Source: a virus
Taxonomy: Duplodnaviria > Heunggongvirae > Uroviricota > Caudoviricetes
DNA length: 64,000 nt
Direction: 5' to 3' (one strand)
IMG/VR virus record: IMGVR_UViG_2537561979_000003
A program made the translations under genes and the position numbers. The notes beneath the pieces are model-generated. The model did no database searches. It worked only from the letters and a program-made list of their open reading frames with translations, and was not told the DNA's origin. Of the stretch, positions 1,548 through 64,000 are shown piece by piece; position 1 is the first letter of the stretch, and each line of letters opens with the position of its first letter.

Positions 1548-3032
1548 TCATTCATTAAGCCATGCCAGAGCTTCATCAACCTGCGCTTCGTCTTCGACGC
1601 TAAGCACTTCATCCTGGGGAACATAATCCGCCAGCATAGCGAAACAATATGTATCCCAATGGTCTGGTGAGTGCAGGTTGAGTTTTTTCTTCATATCCTC
1701 CTTACTCATCACCTTCCATTGACCTGCGGAGTTAATCCCTACAGGGATTTTCGACGCTTCCTCAATAGTTTCATTACCCTTATCCAGTCTCATACGACCA
1801 GATTTTACGGCCTCTGCGGCTTGAACGTTGGCATAAGCACGTTTATCAAAGTACAGGCTCTTATCTTCACGGCTATGCATCTTTTTACCCCAGCGTATAC
1901 GCTGTACGGTAATACCATAATACTCGTACATCAGATCCGCCGTTGCTTTACCCAGGCCATCGCCGTCTATCGCTATGGTGATATTGGGGAATCGCTCAGG
2001 ATTACATTCTGCGAAAATTTTGGCGGCAAGCTGCGTTTCTGTAACGTCTGTGTATTCCAGCATTCGATAGTTGATTACACGGCGTTTATTTCTCTGGCCG
2101 GACACCATCATGATATTGATAACGGACTTATCCCTTCCCGTGCCACCAGCAACGTCCACACATGCAAGCCAGCCCCATCCTTTGGCAATCTTGACTTTCC
2201 GCCGCGTTGCGCGTTCAACCTCATCACGTCCAAGAAGGAAGCCATCCTGTGATTTAGGGAATAGGCCGCGTACCTTAATCATGTACATAGGGTTATCACG
2301 CCCACCGTACTCCGCCAGCTTCATTTTGATAAATGCTGGCGTTACCAACGGTGATTCCTCACTGTTAAGCGTGATCGCCGTATAAACGCCATCAGGGTTA
2401 CCAGGACGCTTGGCCAGTTTATGGTGTGTATCGTAGAAATAGCCGCTTGGGCGTGTAGGCTGTGACAGCAATAAGATGCGGTTATCCTGTCCGGTAAGAG
2501 CACCGGTGATGATACCGAAAGCTCTATCACTGACACCGGAGGCTTCATCGATAATATACAGAAGATGATCTGCGTGTTCACCGGCGAGAGCTTCTTCACT
2601 TCCCAGACGAAAGCCCTTCGGTACTACAGTCCATACACCTTTACCAGTAACCTCATAGAAAGCGGTTTCTGTCAGAACAAAATAATCAGCAAGCCATGGA
2701 AAACGGCTGGTGGCAGTAGCCCAGTTTATCTTGATGTACTTGAATATACCGGTCATTACCTGCTGAATTTTGTTCGCAACGATAATGGCTCGGGCACCGG
2801 GATACATGATTATGAACAACATGATCATGATAGAAGTCATGTCTGATTTCCCGGTACCATGACCAGACGAAACAGATGTCTTGCTACCCTGTTCCTGCAC
2901 AGACTCAATAATCAGATCCTGCTGCCAGGTAGGTGTTTTGCCGAACAAAACATCAGCGGCCGCAATCCAGTCATAACGATATAGCGCCACCAGCTCGCGC
3001 CAACGTGGATCCGTTACGCAACTTCTGGCCAT
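1548..3032 (-). CDS. pacB: Terminase large subunit (P1 PacB-like, 494 aa)
   Basis: 494-aa ORF with GHGTGKS P-loop, start overlaps stop of upstream terminase-small gene; size and context match P1 PacB. Confidence 0.85.
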
Positions 3033-4225
3033 TAATCATCATCCCCGTATAGCTTGCGGGTAACTTCTTCGTCTTCCTCCTCGTCTTCGTCCAGGTCTTG
3101 TTCCAGCCATGGGTCGTTTGATACACCTTCAGTATCAACATCTCCATAACCGCCTGTATCAACGATATCGGCGATTTCTTCCCTACGCTGCTCAATCCAC
3201 AATGCGGCATCGGCGCGGCGGTTGGCGGCCCGTTCTCGCGCAACTTTGTCCAGATCTTCAAGAGAAGGGCCACCGACGGCTGTTTGCCTTTCCTCATCAT
3301 CGGTATTGGTCTTAGGAGCACGCAGATCGGCTTTGATTTGCTCCAGCATCAGGGGCGGAACTTTCCCGCCATGCGCCTCGATGAATTCAGCTGCTTCCAG
3401 CACTGACCAGTTATTTTCACGCTTTCGTTCGTATGCCAGTTTAACAATGCCAGCTTGCCCCATAGACAAAGCGTGCTTTTCCGCCTCCCGGCTTTCTTTT
3501 CGATAGTTATTCCGGATGCTGTAAATGGTGTTGATCAGGCTGCTTATCTGCGCGGAACAGCTGTTTAGCATGCTCGCGATACGGTATTCAGGCGGAGTTC
3601 CTTCATCATCGTCTTTTTGCTGATCGCGCATTTCCTGAACCAAGCGAATACACGTATCCCTGGCGTTCTCCAGCATAAGGAGATGAGAGAGAGACTTTTC
3701 CAGAAGAGTGGTTTCCAGAACATCAGCCCCGGACCGACGCAACATAGCGCGCGCGGCCTTCCGCGCTTCAACGTTATCTATCAGGTAATCGCCAGCTTCG
3801 AATTCAAAGCGTTCACCATCATCATCCAGGGTGTCGCGTTCCAGGCGATCACGTAAGGTCCGGTGGGCGCGGGTGATCACGTCATGATCATCAGAACGAT
3901 CATTTATGCGCTTATTCTGGCGCTTCGCGTTCTCGACTGCGGCACTGACAACAGCATTAACTCTTTGTTTTTCAGCCATTTCAGCCACAACGTGATCACC
4001 TGCACGTTGATCATTAGCGTGATCAATGATCATGCTTTTTAGTGGTTTTCTGACAGGCTTATTTGGCTTACGGCTGTCCGCTGTTCCGGTGTCTTCTTTG
4101 AATGCACGGAGATAACGACGTGCGGTGTTTGGGTTGAGATTAAACTCGGCGGCATATTGTGCGATGGTGTAACCACCATCTCGCGCCAGGCGAGCAAAAT
4201 TCTTCTTGTGATCGTCCCAGGTCAC
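3032..4225 (-). CDS. pacA: Terminase small/pac-recognition subunit (P1 PacA-like, 397 aa)
   Basis: 397-aa ORF, N-terminal HTH-like region, acidic C-terminus, contains the hexamer-repeat pac site, translationally coupled to pacB. Confidence 0.75.
3873..4033. other. pac packaging site: two clusters of TGATCA/G hexamers (3 + 4) containing GATC sites
   Basis: tgatca at 3873, 3884, (c)gatca 3897 and tgatca at 3993, 4009, 4019, 4028, inside the 5' part of pacA. Confidence 0.6.
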
Positions 4226-4311
4226 TTATGCTTCCTTTCGTATAAAACTCTTTTTGACGCGAGGGTAACGAAAGTCACATGTCAAAAGGCCCGGAACGGG
4301 CAAGCAATCAA

Positions 4312-4764
4312 TCAGATACGTGCGGATGTGGCATTACCGTAATGACGGTGCTGACGGGCCACCTTATTGAAAAGTTGACGCGCCATTACCCAAGGCTGGT
4401 GCTCCCGGCGTTCCTTTTCGTCCTGCGTCATATAGAGTTCGTTCTGGAGTTTTTCATCAAACCGGCGCGGAGCGCGACTGCGGCGAAAGAATTCAGGATT
4501 CAGAGAGTGGATCTGAAATCTACGTGGGCGTGTACTGTCATCAATCAAAACAGACGAATACTTAGACACAGCGATAGCCTTTAAGCGCAGATAAACATCG
4601 CGCTTATCGACATCCAGATGCGGGTATTCCTTTTCAAGAATTGCTGCGAGTTCTTTCGCTGATAGAAGAGATTTAGTGCGGATCATGTAATCCGCAATCT
4701 CGTACGATGTTATTCGTGAGTGATTTATTTCCATGAAGTGGCGTCCCTGCCAGTTAAGTAACAT
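4312..4764 (-). CDS. Late-promoter-activator-like protein (Lpa/gp10 position), 150 aa
   Basis: Assigned by position directly upstream of pacA and by an operator-like site upstream; no motif evidence. Confidence 0.35.
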   Translation of the reverse strand: MLLNWQGRHFMEINHSRITSYEIADYMIRTKSLLSAKELAAILEKEYPHLDVDKRDVYLRLKAIAVSKYSSVLIDDSTRPRRFQIHSLNPEFFRRSRAPRRFDEKLQNELYMTQDEKERREHQPWVMARQLFNKVARQHRHYGNATSARI

Positions 4765-4834
4765 CCTGTCACCTACTGATTAGCCCATGTCAACTAATCA
4801 ACGTCGAATATAATACCCTAAATTAAAGAAATAG

Positions 4835-4851
4835 CAATACATTAGAGCAAT
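4835..4851 (-). promoter_or_regulatory. C1-operator-like 17-mer (14/17)
   Basis: ATTGCTCTAATGTATTG on minus strand, between 347-aa gene stop and the Lpa-like gene. Confidence 0.4.
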
Positions 4852-4852
4852 T

Positions 4853-5896
4853 TTATCTAACACTCGACGAATGACTTGTGATAGCGCCGACTCCAAGCGC
4901 GTAATCAAAGAACAATCGTTGATGCATCGCCAGCCTACCGTGCGTCTTCTCCCAATTATCGCGGTCACGCTCAATATCACGCTGGCATGACTGGCACAGA
5001 GGAATAGCATAAATGTCATGCGCGCATAATCGACTATGACGAACGATATAAGGCGTAATGTGAGCGCCAGCTCCCGCAGCTCCACAGCCACAGCATGGAC
5101 GGGAAGCCACAAAGTCCATGTACTCGGGCAATTTTAGCGATTGAAGTTTTGGTATCTTGAAATGCGCCATACCTGGGTCGGAGTCAACATCCACAGGGCA
5201 TACTTTTGCACGCATCGGCGCGGCGCGTTCTTCCATCATCTGAACATATGCTGTAGCGCGATCGTCATACGGGCGAATATCCGCCTCTTTCAGAGGTCCG
5301 CTATCCTGCGGAGTAGCCTTCATCTTATTTATTGATATGCGGCAGACTTCTTCCGGCATCAGGTGCATCATGTTGCGCATGAAAGCCCACCAGCACAGCT
5401 CCTGAATACTTAAATCATGGCTATTTGAAAGGCCCATTTCCTGACGGGCGACATCCAGTATCCAGTTAACGCGATTATTGTGCAGCGTTTCTTTCAGCTC
5501 ATTAAAACCACGCATCCGGTAATGGTTATCGTGATGCCAGCACAACAACACCGCGCTATTGTCTCGTTCAGCGTGGACAATATGGTTGTCACACCAACTA
5601 CGATCTGCGGCCTGGCATTGACCCTCTTTCCTACGCAACCACGCCACCAGCGCGTCAATTCCACCAATACGGCGAAACAGTTCATCGCTGTTAAAAAACG
5701 GCTGCAACGCCTCATTTGTTGCCATGGTTTGCTCGGTAACAACTAGGCCGTCTTCCATGTGCTCGATTAACTCACGCGGCACCGGCTCCATAATAAATTT
5801 ACGGCCAGCCTCCACCAGCTTTCTGACCTCCTGATCCACTTTGAACGTGGCGAGGCCAAGCTCTTTCTGTACAAAGGGAGTAATTACGGCTTTCAC
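4853..5896 (-). CDS. Hypothetical protein, 347 aa, Cys-rich C-terminus (CCGCG..C..C..C)
   Basis: Long ORF, possible Zn-binding cluster near C-terminus. Confidence 0.5.
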
Positions 5897-5923
5897 ATCA
5901 CACCTTTAATCACTGATTGGGCT

Positions 5924-6124
5924 TTATCTGCTGCCCGACATTATCTGTTTAAGCACAACCATTTCCTGACGGCATAACACAGCAATAGCGGTCCTGGCAC
6001 CAATTTGCTTACTAACCAGGTATTGCTTTATCTTGCGGCGACTCACGCCATCAAGAAGCATCTTTAACGCTTCACGGGACAATTTGTTGTATTTGCGTGC
6101 CATTAATCTACTCCGCAGAACCAT
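5924..6124 (-). CDS. Small basic protein (about 57-66 aa)
   Basis: ORF overlapping doc 3' end by 17 nt; weak. Confidence 0.3.
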
Positions 6125-60224: not shown

Positions 60225-60659
60225 ATGTCTGACGTCTCAACAAACCTCTATAAGAGTCAGTTGTTGGACTATTACTATCAGCGGCGCGCTGAATCGTCCA
60301 TTAACAAAGGCTCTCGATTTTTAATCAGCAAGGCCGTTTTCGGTACCAGTTCACTGGTTACTAAGAAAGGAGATGGCACTTATGAGATTGGAGAACTGCC
60401 AAAGGCTTTCGATCTGGCAGAACTGACCAGTCAATTTTGCACCATCAACCTCGTCCCAACCTACTCAGGCGGGATAATTACTGTCCGAATGGACCTTGAT
60501 CAAAGTCAGTTGCAGGAAGGGAAAAACTACCCATTCAACACTCTGGTTGTTCTGGATAACGAGAATAAGCCAATCGCCATTATTTGTGTCCAAGAAGACT
60601 CGCTGTATGTGGGCAAAACATATACCGCAGTTATGGCCATAAACTCGACTACAGCATAA
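60225..60659 (+). CDS. Tail-fibre-associated protein, 144 aa
   Basis: ORF directly upstream of tail-fibre gene. Confidence 0.5.
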   Translation: MSDVSTNLYKSQLLDYYYQRRAESSINKGSRFLISKAVFGTSSLVTKKGDGTYEIGELPKAFDLAELTSQFCTINLVPTYSGGIITVRMDLDQSQLQEGKNYPFNTLVVLDNENKPIAIICVQEDSLYVGKTYTAVMAINSTTA

Positions 60660-60670
60660 GGATATGCTTG

Positions 60671-62545
60671 ATGAATGACGTTACAGTTGTTACATCGGTT
60701 ACTTACCCATCACCCGAGTCGTTGGCTCTGGTGGCTGATGTGCAATACCACGAACCATATCTGTCAGCCGCTCTAAACCGAAAATTCAGGGGAATTGTTG
60801 ACCCGGGATTTTATGCTGGTTTCTTGCCTAAGCCTGGCGGTGGAATGAACCTGTTAATCACCTCAGTGGATGGAGATAAAACCGCTGGCGCGGCGTCAGT
60901 GGATATTGGTGAATTCTACCAGGTAACTATTCAGCATCGTAAGGATATCTCTCTTGCACTTAACGCAGGCAAGAAATATGCAATTGTGCTGAAGGGAAGA
61001 TACCTTCTTGGAGAAGATACCTATCAGGTGAATACCGCGTCACATATTCATGCAGCTGAATTTGTTGCCAGAACCTATACCGATTCATATCAGTTAGGTG
61101 ATGGGGAACTGCTGGTTTGTACGGTGAATATCCCTGCTGGCGTATCTACCATTACTCAAGAGATGATTGATACATCCGAGCGTATCAACCGCACGATCGG
61201 CATTGATATTTCAGACTCTGTAACCAGTACCAGAAGTGATGTTGCTGCGAGTTCGCTGGCAGTTAAAAAAGCCTACGATCTGGCGAAAAGCAAGTATACG
61301 GCGCAGGATGCAAGCACAACGCAAAAGGGATTAGTTCAGCTCAGTAGTGCCACTAACAGTACGTCCGAAGTGCTGGCCGCCACACCGAAAGCTGTCAAGG
61401 CTGCATATGACCTGGCTAACGGGAAGTATACAGCCCAGGATGCAACCACGACACAAAAAGGGATAGTTCAGCTCAGTAGCGACACCAACAGCACTTCTGA
61501 AACATTAGCTGCAACTCCAAAAGCGGTTAAAGCTGCATACGATCTAGCAGCCGGAAAGGCACCATCCAGTCATACACATCCCTGGAATCAGATCACTGGT
61601 GTGCCAACAGCTTCATTGACAGCGAAAGGCATCACTCAGCTCAGTAGTGCCACTAACAGCACGTCTGAAGTGCTGGCCGCCACACCGAAAGCTGTCAAGG
61701 CTGCATATGACCTGGCTAACGGGAAGTATACAGCCCAGGATGCAACCACGGCTCAAAAAGGGATAGTCCAACTCAGCAGTGCTACCAATAGCACTTCTGA
61801 AACATTAGCTGCAACTCCAAAAGCGGTTAAAGCTGCATACGATCTAGCAGCCGGAAAGGCACCATCCAGTCATACACATCCCTGGAATCAGATCACTGGT
61901 GTGCCAACAGCTTCATTGACAGCGAAAGGCATCACTCAGCTCAGTAGTGCCACTAACAGCACGTCTGAAGTGCTGGCCGCCACACCGAAAGCTGTCAAGG
62001 CTGCATATGATTTGGCTAATGGAAAGCAAGCGGCAGACGCTACGCTCACTGCTCTAGCGGCACTAGCTACAGCAGCAGATAAACTCCCTTATTTCACAGG
62101 TGTTGATCGTGCCGCGTTAACTGCATTGACAAGTGTTGGACGCGCCATTCTTGGTAAGACCAGTATTCAGAGCGTTCTTGATTACCTTGGTTTGGGAGAA
62201 GCGGCAAAACGGAATGTGGGCACAGGAGATAATCAGATACCGGATATGGGAGCATTCGCTTCTGGTTCGGGATGGTTCAGGCTACCAGGTGGATATATTG
62301 TTCAGTTTGGCACTTTTTCAGGAAACACGACCCGCTTTATCAGTGGACACTTCCCTATACCATTCCCTAATCAGCCGATGGTTTCAGTCAGTGTTATGTC
62401 TGATGCCGTTCAGTCAGACCCGTCGAATCCTGCCCCGCAGGTTTTGTCTGTAAATTTTGAACATATCAGTAATTCAGCGTGGCGTGTGGCAACCAGTGAT
62501 ATCTCACAGCAATACAGATTCAGTTATATTTCGATAGGACGGTAG
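60671..62545 (+). CDS. Tail fibre (S-like) with five phage-tail-fibre repeats (start refined to MNDVTVV)
   Basis: Repeats ..TQKGIVQLSSATNSTSE.LAATPKAVKAAYDLA..; near-identical ~300-bp tandem duplication. Confidence 0.7.
   Translation: MNDVTVVTSVTYPSPESLALVADVQYHEPYLSAALNRKFRGIVDPGFYAGFLPKPGGGMNLLITSVDGDKTAGAASVDIGEFYQVTIQHRKDISLALNAGKKYAIVLKGRYLLGEDTYQVNTASHIHAAEFVARTYTDSYQLGDGELLVCTVNIPAGVSTITQEMIDTSERINRTIGIDISDSVTSTRSDVAASSLAVKKAYDLAKSKYTAQDASTTQKGLVQLSSATNSTSEVLAATPKAVKAAYDLANGKYTAQDATTTQKGIVQLSSDTNSTSETLAATPKAVKAAYDLAAGKAPSSHTHPWNQITGVPTASLTAKGITQLSSATNSTSEVLAATPKAVKAAYDLANGKYTAQDATTAQKGIVQLSSATNSTSETLAATPKAVKAAYDLAAGKAPSSHTHPWNQITGVPTASLTAKGITQLSSATNSTSEVLAATPKAVKAAYDLANGKQAADATLTALAALATAADKLPYFTGVDRAALTALTSVGRAILGKTSIQSVLDYLGLGEAAKRNVGTGDNQIPDMGAFASGSGWFRLPGGYIVQFGTFSGNTTRFISGHFPIPFPNQPMVSVSVMSDAVQSDPSNPAPQVLSVNFEHISNSAWRVATSDISQQYRFSYISIGR
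62175..62200. other. Possible cix/hix-type inversion crossover site inside the tail-fibre gene
   Basis: TTCTTGATTACCTTGGTTTGGGAGAA resembles the 26-bp Din-family inversion site; tentative. Confidence 0.3.
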
Positions 62546-62547
62546 AA

Positions 62548-62988
62548 ATGCAGAAATATATTTTCAGTGCCGATAAAAATGCGTTTTTCCCTGTGGAGCT
62601 TAAAATCGCTTATCAGGAATCCGGTGAATGGCCCGATGATGGAATCGAAATTGACGACACTGTTGCCGCCGAATTTATGAAGGAAGCACCAGAAGGAAAA
62701 TACAGAGGTGTCATCGACGGAATGCCTGCATGGATTGATATTCCACCGCCAACTCATGAGGAACAAATTGCCGCAGCCGAACTGGAAAAGCAGCAATTGA
62801 TTAATCAGGTCAACGAATACATAAACAGTAAGCAATGGCCTGGTAAAGCGGCGATTGGTCGCCTGAAAGGTGAGGAACTGGCGCAATATAATTTGTGGCT
62901 GGATTATCTGGACGCACTGGAACTGGTCGATACTTCCGGTGCGCCAGATATTGAATGGCCTACGCCTCCGGCAGTTCAGGCCAGATGA
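62548..62988 (+). CDS. Tail-fibre assembly protein (U-like)
   Basis: C-terminal ..APDIEWPTPP.. typical of Tfa proteins; follows S. Confidence 0.65.
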   Translation: MQKYIFSADKNAFFPVELKIAYQESGEWPDDGIEIDDTVAAEFMKEAPEGKYRGVIDGMPAWIDIPPPTHEEQIAAAELEKQQLINQVNEYINSKQWPGKAAIGRLKGEELAQYNLWLDYLDALELVDTSGAPDIEWPTPPAVQAR

Positions 62989-63343
62989 CATCCGGCGCTG
63001 TACTGGTATTTGTTGCCGTCACCGCGTCAATGTAATCCAGCACAGCGTTAAGCCGGGTTGTTTCTGCCTGCATCAACTTCCGTCCGGCCTGTAATTTCAG
63101 TTGAATCAGACTGATGGAAGCCATTGCAGTATCAATCAGCGACTGGCGCTGTGCTTCTGCTGCATCTACTGCGGCGCCATGCTGTGCCTCGGTATCCGTC
63201 ACCCATTTCTCACCATCCCATTCATCGTATGGCGTTAACGGGGCGATAGTGGTTGTATTTTCAGGATAATCACCCGGAGCTGTGATTTCTTTCGATTCTC
63301 CTGTTTCGGTGCTATAGATGATTTCACCGCGATGGTCTGGCAC
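62960..63343 (-). CDS. Alternative tail-fibre assembly protein (U'-like), inverted orientation
   Basis: C-terminal ..APDVIWPELPEA; 3' end overlaps U by 29 nt. Confidence 0.55.
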   Translation of the reverse strand: MPDHRGEIIYSTETGESKEITAPGDYPENTTTIAPLTPYDEWDGEKWVTDTEAQHGAAVDAAEAQRQSLIDTAMASISLIQLKLQAGRKLMQAETTRLNAVLDYIDAVTATNTSTAPDVIWPELPEA

Positions 63344-63442
63344 ATATTCCCATGAGTTAAAATCTGCAGAACGGCAGATTGCATAACCAGCTTTATGTGT
63401 AACTGGTGCATCTAAACAAGAACATGCCGGGATACCGACGCC

Positions 63443-64000
63443 GGTGATGCTGCCAACTTACTGATTTAGTGTATGATGGTGTTTTTGAGGTGCTCCAGTG
63501 GCTTCTGTTTCTATCAGCTGTCCCTCCTGTTCAGCTACTGACGGAGTGGTGCGTAACGGCAAAAGCACCGCCGGACATCAGCGCTATCTCTGCTCTCATT
63601 GCCGTAAAACATGGCAACTGCAGTTCACTTACACCGCTTCTCAACCCGGTACGCACCAGAAAATCATTGATATGGCCATGAATGGCGTTGGATGCCGGGC
63701 AACCGCCCGCATTATGGGCGTTGGCCTCAACACGATTTTCCGCCATTTAAAAAACTCAGGCCGCAGTCGGTAACCTCGCGCATACAGCCGGGCAGTGACG
63801 TCATCGTCTGCGCGGAAATGGACGAACAGTGGGGATACGTCGGGGCTAAATCGCGCCAGCGCTGGCTGTTTTACGCGTATGACAGGCTCCGGAAGACGGT
63901 TGTTGCGCACGTATTCGGTGAACGCACTATGGCGACGCTGGGGCGTCTTATGAGCCTGCTGTCACCCTTTGACGTGGTGATATGGATGACGGATGGCTGG
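63443..64000 (+). mobile_element. IS1 (left end and insA; element continues beyond window)
   Basis: GGTGATGCTGCCAACTTACTGATTTAGTGTATGATGG terminal repeat at 63443; insA then insB' reading frame. Confidence 0.9.
63498..63773 (+). CDS. insA: IS1 InsA
   Basis: 91-aa [43 protein letters not shown].. Confidence 0.9.

Follow-up and report, generated by a model that had tools for sequence, protein, structure and literature searches.

The 3' end of the analysed stretch of DNA (hereafter the window; 64,000 nucleotides) carries, with a probability of about 0.88, a Din-family (Cin/Min/Gin-type) invertible tail-fibre segment of a P1-like plasmid prophage, into which IS1 and IS26 have been added by simple insertion and in which the switch is frozen. 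The window originates from scaffold GL872122.1 of Escherichia coli TA007, a circular P1-like plasmid of about 94.7-94.8 kb that was linearised within IS1, the window end and the scaffold end both lying inside this element. The same locus is present in the sister strain TA008 (ADKA01000031.1) and in assemblies of three read sets. Between positions 40000 and 63442, 91-94% of the window aligns with about 98% identity to many P1-like plasmids, and positions 1550-6000 match P1 pacA, pacB and lpa; the collinear P1 backbone places the replicon among the P1-like (Punavirus) plasmid prophages. Extension along the source contig by way of PacB, a ubiquitous protein, led only to unrelated contigs. The features of the locus within the window are as follows.

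60225..60659, plus strand: gene R, homologue of P1 tail-fibre protein R (PF26881 Phage_P1_tail_fiber_R in the gene table of the source contig; P1 R-S-U synteny)
60671..62545, plus strand: S, the currently expressed tail-fibre gene (Pfam Phage_fiber_2 and Gp53-like_C)
62175..62200, no strand: cixR, 26-bp crossover site TTCTTGATTACCTTGGTTTGGGAGAA (alignment to the sites of relatives L001 and L002; comparison with P1 cixL and cixR)
62189..62545, plus strand: Sv, variable C-terminal fibre cassette of 118 codons joined to Sc (about 97-98% identity to the silent cassette of relatives)
62548..62988, plus strand: U, tail-fibre assembly protein (chaperone) for Sv (Pfam Caudo_TAP)
62960..63442, minus strand: 3' fragment of U', chaperone of the alternative fibre, codons 41-200 and stop (open frame; homologue alignment)
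63434..63442, no strand: left copy of the 9-bp IS1 target-site duplication ACCGACGCC (U' codons 43-41 on the minus strand)
63443..64000, plus strand: IS1, nt 1-558 of 768 (exact IRL, InsA Pfam domains, IS1A-family annotation in matching records)

The expressed arm is intact. Downstream of R in the late tail-fibre operon, S encodes a protein of 624 aa (deposited as OSL77243.1, "putative phage tail fiber repeat") in which the constant part Sc is fused to the variable part Sv at the cix core; Pfam identified six Phage_fiber_2 repeats (E 7e-109) and Gp53-like_C at residues 537-624. The invertase-adjacent silent cassette of Salmonella phage MET_P1_103_31 and of Klebsiella P2-like phages is about 97-98% identical to Sv. 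U (146 aa) is matched by Caudo_TAP over its full length (E 1.2e-34) and has the same length as its annotated homologues in L001 and L002. The assignment of S and U to the plus strand and of U' to the minus strand in the preliminary description agrees with Pfam, which detected fibre repeats in S and Caudo_TAP in both U and the minus-strand frame. U and U' each lie directly downstream of a fibre tip, and the PF02413 match assigns both to the lambda Tfa/Mu U type of assembly protein.

The crossover site cixR is located inside S and consists of half-sites TTCTTGATTACC and GGTTTGGGAGAA on the two sides of a TT core at 62187-62188, the core pattern occurring once in the window against 0.03 expected. 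Its right half and core are identical in alignment to the invertase-adjacent sites of L001 and L002, its architecture matches that of P1 cixL and cixR, and the homology shared with segments of P2-like phages starts at 62184-62187. By the comparison with L001, L002 and P1, this 26-mer, recorded earlier as cix-like, is a genuine cix-type site. The second site, cixL (TTTTCTTAAACGTTGGTTTGGGAGAA; L019, 8026-8051), was found in the source scaffold and is inverted relative to cixR once the circle is closed. The locus thus contains two 26-bp sites (12-bp half-sites, 2-bp core) in inverted orientation, alternative C-terminal cassettes in opposite orientations each with its own assembly protein (Sv and U; Sv' and U'), and an adjacent serine-recombinase (resolvase/invertase) gene, though one split by IS26. 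The second inverted site, the invertase gene and the opposed cassettes confirm the Cin-type segment that had been proposed.

The left inverted repeat of IS1, GGTGATGCTGCCAACTTACTGAT, is exact at 63443-63465 and is its sole match in the window (0 expected by chance), in agreement with the junction first proposed. It is followed by insA (63498-63773), which matches both InsA Pfam domains, by the A6C frameshift motif near 63748 and by the beginning of insB'; from TA008 the element could be reassembled in its full length of 768 bp, insA and insB both being open. The 9-bp duplication predicted for the far end was also found, a second copy of ACCGACGCC directly abutting the IS1 right end at the TA007 scaffold start, in the TA008 contig and in Logan contigs L020 and L021. 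With inverted repeats of about 23 bp, insA/insB' with A6C, a length of 768 bp and a 9-bp duplication, the element is an IS1 (IS1A/IS1R type) in which nothing is unusual, and it lies between both cix sites, inside the segment as originally supposed. The first base of the scaffold corresponds to about nt 489 of IS1 and its last base to nt 558, both in forward orientation, so that the ends overlap by about 70 bp within the element; the closed circle would therefore carry a single IS1 copy, in keeping with the direct duplication and with synteny. The exact IS1 junction was not found in scans of the GTDB representatives and of IMG/VR, and a BLAST search with the junction gave no record of this insertion in collections of phages, plasmids and complete E. 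coli genomes. Chromosomal two-piece BLAST matches (H51, H52) were set aside, their arrangements being different from this insertion.

The gene hit by IS1 is U', at codons 41-43. On the minus strand, the frame stays open from the IS1 junction at 63442 to 62960; over residues 41-200, the fragment shares 95% identity with the 200-aa U' of L001 and 91% with that of L002, and the DNA alignment to intact homologues stops exactly at 63442/63443. The remnant keeps the conserved C-terminal part of Caudo_TAP (E 8e-30) and is devoid of the N-terminus, whereas the 5' fragment on the far side matches Caudo_TAP_N. The start codon and the first 43 codons are cut off from the rest, and removal of IS1 in silico restored the 200-aa open reading frame. 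Tail-fibre assembly proteins bind the fibre via a variable N-terminal domain (PMC9608196); U' function has probably been lost. Beyond IS1 come the ACCGACGCC duplication and U' codons 1-43, followed by a complete Sv', which runs for 168 codons between the cix core and its stop and has a tail-collar (Collar) domain and conserved N- and C-termini, and then by cixL and the 5' end of the invertase gene.

The Cin/Min-type invertase gene, which lies past cixL and outside the window, is split by IS26 at nt 54-61, this octamer forming the 8-bp direct duplication (CGTTACGC) of the element; darA, hdf, lydB and the holin genes come after it. IS26 itself (820 bp, 234-aa Tnp26, 14-bp inverted repeats, 8-bp duplication) is like the known element in all respects. 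The insertion separates the N-terminus with the catalytic serine from the other 170 residues, and the gene as it stands is predicted to be unable to encode active enzyme. Removal of IS26 in silico gave an invertase of 190 aa. It is 98.9% identical to the recombinase of plasmid NZ_CP069570, in which Resolvase and HTH_7 domains are recognised, and shares 75% identity with P1 Cin. The arrangement is read without gaps in Logan contigs (SRR024118, SRR024333), in the order hdf, lydB, holins, invertase 3' part, IS26, invertase 5' part, cixL, Sv', U' codons 1-43 and IS1 IRR. In P1, the annotation puts the enhancer at nt 19-90 of cin, and IS26, at nt 54-61 of the homologous gene, is within the interval equivalent to this Fis-dependent enhancer; judged by position, enhancer function may have been lost as well. 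When the far-side piece was compared by BLAST, the IS26-invertase junction was not matched in any closed plasmid. Next to IS26, the TA007 scaffold is interrupted by a gap of 265 N, and in 454 assemblies the final 195 bp of the element are present in additional, perhaps artefactual, copies.

In the intact layout, Sc, cixR, Sv and U would have been followed by U' and Sv' reading leftward and then by cixL, with the invertase gene reading away from the segment. We propose two simple insertions, that of IS1 (768 bp) in U' at codons 41-43 and that of IS26 in the invertase gene. Since removal of the two elements restores both open reading frames (200 aa and 190 aa), the switch is most likely dead, frozen in the S-U orientation. 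The segment would no longer be invertible by its own enzyme and would be fixed in the expression of intact S (Sc and Sv) and U, while the silent cassette would retain a complete Sv' devoid of a working chaperone. The sequence past IS1, where the preliminary description had placed the remainder of the locus, indeed contained the second cix site and a cin-like gene, Sv' being complete and the invertase gene split by IS26. Of the two outcomes then envisaged, a locked host range is the most likely, and a phase-variable defective state is unlikely because the invertase gene itself is split by IS26.

Such a state could still arise at low frequency if a Din-family invertase of the host or of a co-resident element, such as e14 Pin or the invertase of a P2-like prophage, acted in trans. 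Gin, Cin, Pin and Hin invertases complement one another; both cix sites here are intact and inverted, so that a host-encoded Din invertase could in principle act on them, and closely related segments are present in P2-like prophages. A rare inversion would then yield a phase-variable sub-population in which the particles have unassembled Sc-Sv' fibres. IS26, however, interrupts the counterpart of the cis-acting enhancer, and the De Bruijn contigs are unbranched through both cix sites: those of SRR024118 pass both sites, and those of two further read sets cross cixL, in the parental configuration only. Neither the hybrid Sc-Sv' junction (TTCTTGATTACCTTGGTTTGGGAGAAGGCTCTGCAT) nor any other recombinant junction was present in the fetched contigs and loci. 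Parental junctions alone were detected in the two strain assemblies and the contigs of three read sets, although assembled sequence is weak evidence on the presence of both orientations in the population. Flipping in trans is considered very improbable.

Marginally less probable still is an inversion mediated by IS1, in which two inverted copies of IS1 flank a flipped piece consisting of the invertase 5' end, cixL, Sv' and the U' N-terminus, the cix sites then being in direct orientation. Such inversions are known in P1-like plasmids (PMC6906374), and in TA008 record ADKA01000031.1 the 1.4-kb piece after IS1 is indeed opposite in orientation to TA007, which makes the 9-bp copies reverse complements of each other, the signature of intramolecular replicative transposition. 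The piece is, however, attached in TA008 only through a 20-N scaffold gap, and the IS1 parts of that record (nt 1-570 and 355-768) overlap identically. The TA007 scaffold and the gap-free Logan contigs show the piece in collinear order with the 3' part of the invertase gene and with the lyd genes, which lie on the other side of an IS26 that has a direct 8-bp duplication. Flipping of the piece by homologous recombination is impossible because IS1 and IS26 are different elements. The reading based on TA008, with an IS1-mediated inversion, a truncated invertase gene and a partial IS26, was dropped in view of the collinear order and direct duplications in TA007 and Logan, and the 1.4-kb piece is likely mis-oriented in the public TA008 record.

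The earlier model, in which IS1 truncates the alternative fibre, most of Sv' being deleted or displaced with about 100 bp left (63344..63442) and inversion giving a fibre-less phage, is favoured by the fact that the first start codon of the minus-strand frame is the GTG at 63343, 99 bp from IS1, and by a 127-aa product annotated in GenBank. It has practically no probability left, since these 99 bp continue the U' frame and are almost identical to what intact homologues have for U' residues 41-73, and since the full 168-codon Sv' lies past IS1. What IS1 splits is the chaperone gene, and the "start" at 63343 is merely the first GTG past the junction. The complete Sv' that was to overturn the earlier model together with an IS1 outside the segment does exist, but IS1 is not outside. 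GenBank labels the 127-aa U' stump a tail-fibre assembly protein.

The two-insertion locus resembles the P1 C-segment (NC_005856) in having R, S (constant and variable parts) and U facing U' and Sv' between 26-bp sites, a core TT and inner half-site GGTTT(A/G)(A/G)GAGAA common to both, a serine invertase (75% identical to Cin) and a P1-like backbone around it. It differs in several respects: with IS1 left out, the segment measures 1.9 kb, compared with 4.2 kb for that of P1; the cassettes, one with a gp53-like and the other with a Collar-domain tip, are unrelated to P1 Sv and Sv'; the 5' end of the invertase gene adjoins cixL and the gene reads away from the segment, while P1 cin ends at cixL; and one IS interrupts U' and another the invertase gene. 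Closer relatives are MET_P1_103_31 (OQ383618) and Klebsiella phages Kp48xx, with 97-98% DNA identity over cix, Sv, U and the U' 3' part in the window, and plasmid NZ_CP069570, with about 96% over the same interval. These copies in P2-like phages and P1-like plasmids share the homology from the cix core and an invertase reading away from the segment, but are intact, with U' of 200 aa and an invertase of 190-197 aa; the P2-like phage expresses the orientation opposite to that of the plasmid here.

Decay of the switch through IS elements has already been described for P1-like plasmids. In pSvP1 and pTZ20_1P, IS-truncated cin and degraded C-segments are known (Venturini et al. 2019, PMC6906374); both are E. 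coli P1-like plasmids with a truncated invertase gene and a tail-fibre switch judged non-functional, the damage in pTZ20_1P being IS26-mediated, and both have undergone large deletions and inversions and carry resistance or virulence cargo that they have acquired (PMC6906374). Here, in contrast, two clean simple insertions with target duplications have left all the pieces present. The locus is one more P1-like plasmid with a host-range switch decayed through IS elements, which bears on the spread of these plasmids as phages; it opens no new biology, and its value is mainly corrective in that an IS-truncated frame can be misread as a whole gene beside a "remnant".

Independent junctions of IS1 in this U'-type gene, at codons 40, 43 and 50 (three positions within about 30 bp), are found in P1-like plasmids, in chromosomal prophages of the P2/186-like kind and in one P2-like phage from a metagenome. 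It is an improbable but conceivable reading that the 5' 150 bp of the gene is a recurrent IS1 target, and the recurrence could reflect either a sequence hot spot or selection silencing one arm of the switch.

The final 3.8 kb of the window hold the tail-fibre end of the P1-like plasmid prophage. Positions 40000-63442 align with many E. coli P1-like plasmids over 91-94% of their length at ~98% identity, and positions 1550-6000 match P1 pacA, pacB and lpa. The features at this end are as follows.

60225-60659: R, upstream of S
60671-62545: tail-fibre gene S, 624 aa, six Phage_fiber_2 repeats and a Gp53-like C-terminus (Pfam)
62548-62988: U, 146 aa, a Caudo_TAP protein
63442 down to 62960, minus strand: second Caudo_TAP reading frame (part of U'), converging on U
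from 63443: IS1 left end, exact 23 bp (single match in the window, 0 expected by chance)
63498-63773: insA, with both InsA Pfam domains

Upon translation, the minus-strand U' frame was open right up to the IS1 junction, and its 160 residues in the window align gap-free to residues 41-200 of the 200-aa U' of the P2-like Salmonella phage OQ383618 (L001; 95% identity) and the intact P1-like plasmid NZ_CP069570 (L002; 91%). The DNA tracks both relatives through 63442 and diverges at 63443. The open frame, the alignment and this break together indicate that IS1 interrupts the chaperone gene U' at 120-129 bp from its start. The preliminary description had correctly identified IS1 as disrupting the locus, but the disrupted gene is U' and not the silent alternative fibre part Sv'; the 99 bp before IS1, read there as an Sv' stump with U' starting at the first GTG (63343), lie in the open frame and code for U' residues 41-73. 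In-silico deletion of IS1 and one repeat copy restored the 200-aa U'. Since tail-fibre assembly proteins bind the cognate fibre via a variable N-terminal domain and trimerise via conserved C-terminal helices (PMC9608196), the remaining U', devoid of its first 40 residues and translation start, should not support assembly of the Sc-Sv' fibre. In GenBank, the 127-aa GTG-initiated stump (62960-63343, minus strand) is recorded without a pseudogene flag as tail-fibre assembly protein EGB64575.1 and OSL77241.1.

The S protein is also encoded, as an exact match, on E. coli TA008 contig ADKA01000031.1 (94,595 bp), and the 127-aa U' stump on E. coli TA007 scaffold GL872122.1 (94,793 bp), of which the last base is the last of the window, so that the window represents its terminal 64 kb. 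Look-up of the Sv' ORF placed the missing half of the locus at the start of GL872122.1 and also on contigs of three read sets, of which two are free of gaps and the third, shorter, stops at the Sv' end. Scanning GTDB representatives and IMG/VR for the exact U'-IS1 junction gave no match, and no record with it turned up when phage, plasmid and complete E. coli collections were searched by BLAST. The far side reads as follows, in window orientation.

IS1 right end: GGTAATGACTCCAACTTATTGAT in reverse
second copy of the IS1 target repeat: ACCGACGCC
U' codons 43 to 1: minus strand
Sv': minus strand, 168 codons from cix core to stop, Collar domain, both ends conserved against a homologue
cixL: crossover site, inverted relative to cixR
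spacer: 95 bp, between cixL and the invertase gene
serine-invertase gene, first 61 nt: reading rightward
IS26: 820 bp, 234-aa Tnp26, direct repeat CGTTACGC on both sides
invertase gene: remaining 3' part
holin genes, lydB, hdf, darA: as in P1 and L002

The IS1 is a complete 768-bp element with insA and insB frames open, and the 9-bp duplication sought at its far end is present as the second ACCGACGCC copy adjoining the right end. The complete Sv' past IS1 overturns the earlier view that this part was reduced to about 100 bp.

The TA008 record shows a different layout, in which a 1.4-kb piece (invertase 5' end, cixL, Sv' and U' N-terminus; L003 13343-14753, or ADKA01000031.1 positions 1-1411) follows IS1 in flipped orientation, turning the two 9-bp repeats into reverse complements as in an IS1-mediated inversion. 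A real inversion in that strain is, however, highly improbable: the piece is joined through a 20-N gap only, IS1 is present in two parts, nt 1-570 and nt 355-768, that are identical where they overlap, and the TA007 scaffold begins at ~IS1 nt 489 forward and finishes at nt 558 forward, the signature of a circle cut inside one IS1. Furthermore, in the gap-free Logan contigs (L020, L021) the piece continues through IS26 into the invertase 3' part in collinear order, and there is no homology for flipping it because IS1 and IS26 are different elements. The inversion drawn in TA008 was therefore rejected, and the flipped layout that mimics it most likely arose from an error in scaffolding.

IS26 splits the invertase gene after codon 20, cutting off the 20-codon start of the gene (MLIGYVRVSTNDQ...), where the catalytic serine is expected from homology with other serine recombinases. 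In-silico deletion of IS26 and one repeat copy gave a 190-aa invertase with 98.9% identity to the L002 enzyme and 75% to P1 Cin. As the insertion (invertase nt 54-61) lies within the interval annotated as recombinational enhancer in P1 cin (nt 19-90), an invertase supplied in trans would probably work poorly on this segment. A 174-aa invertase fragment without the first 20 residues is also called as a gene. In the 454-based assemblies of TA007 and TA008 (L019 7287-7909, L003 13363-13575), the IS26 right end is followed by extra copies of its last 195 bp (junction GCAACAGTGCC|TTTAAATCC; in TA007 with a 265-N gap between copies), whereas the Logan contigs carry one 820-bp IS26; the extra copies may form a genuine tandem or be an artefact of the assemblies.

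The expressed arm, S (Sc and Sv) with U, is intact, while in the silent arm Sv' is complete and U' split. With its own invertase lost, the segment would be frozen and the host range fixed at the Sv/U specificity. A contig of SRR024118 crosses cixR, and contigs of three read sets, SRR024118 included, cross cixL; all are unbranched and in the parental configuration, consistent with a frozen switch. The locked host range proposed earlier is thus probably right, with an additional reason, the IS26-split invertase gene, outside the sequence then at hand.

The cix-like 26-mer noticed inside S at 62175-62200 (TTCTTGATTACC-TT-GGTTTGGGAGAA) was confirmed as cixR: its core and whole right half-site are shared with the invertase-abutting sites of L001 and L002, its architecture is that of P1 cixL and cixR (...ACC-TT-GGTTTAAGAGAA), and the window has a single occurrence of the motif against 0.03 expected. 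The Sv-U-U'(3' part) region, 62184-63442, shares 97-98% identity with invertible segments of Salmonella and Klebsiella P2-like phages, with P1-like flanks. This identity begins at or a few bases upstream of the cix core (62184-62187) and ends at 63442, the pattern expected of a mobile cassette bounded by a crossover site, and suggests that unrelated phage types have exchanged cassettes at that site. For the separate Sv'-U' piece, located beyond the window, the matches are to large Klebsiella, Citrobacter and Enterobacter plasmids.

The locus belongs with the Din-family fibre switches known from P1, Mu, p15B and P2-like phages, and its cassettes are present, intact, in many phages and plasmids. 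It differs from P1 in cassette content, in segment size (1.9 kb against 4.2 kb) and in invertase orientation, the 5' end here adjoining cixL. Decay of the region is known in P1-like plasmids, with cin cut by IS26-mediated truncation in pTZ20_1P and the invertase gene truncated in pSvP1 (PMC6906374); the TA007 locus is a clean two-hit example of this decay and mechanistically nothing new.

Chimeric ORFs in which the N-terminus of the same U'-type chaperone runs into the IS1 right end (proteins P0002, P0003 and P0004) were found elsewhere, including L023 4001-4204 (E. coli UGAV01000006.1) and L024 4001-4201 (a metagenome contig), by a search that picks up this IS1 orientation only. Their junctions follow codon 40 (two cases) and codon 50, compared with codon 43 here; in L023, 186-like early genes after IS1 imply an adjacent deletion. 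Within the one orientation covered, the start of U'-type genes may be a regional hot spot for IS1.

The constant part of S carries a 300-bp tandem repeat (61336-62026; 2.3 copies, 96% matches, Phage_fiber_2 units), at which similarity to other P1-like plasmids breaks, so that fibre length differs among relatives (624 aa here against 824 aa in NZ_CP069570). On the TA007 plasmid, an IS605-family OrfB/TnpB-like gene between the ddrB-like and darA genes (L019 284-1492; 402 aa, Cas12f1-like TNB domain) adds a further mobile-element insertion to the backbone.
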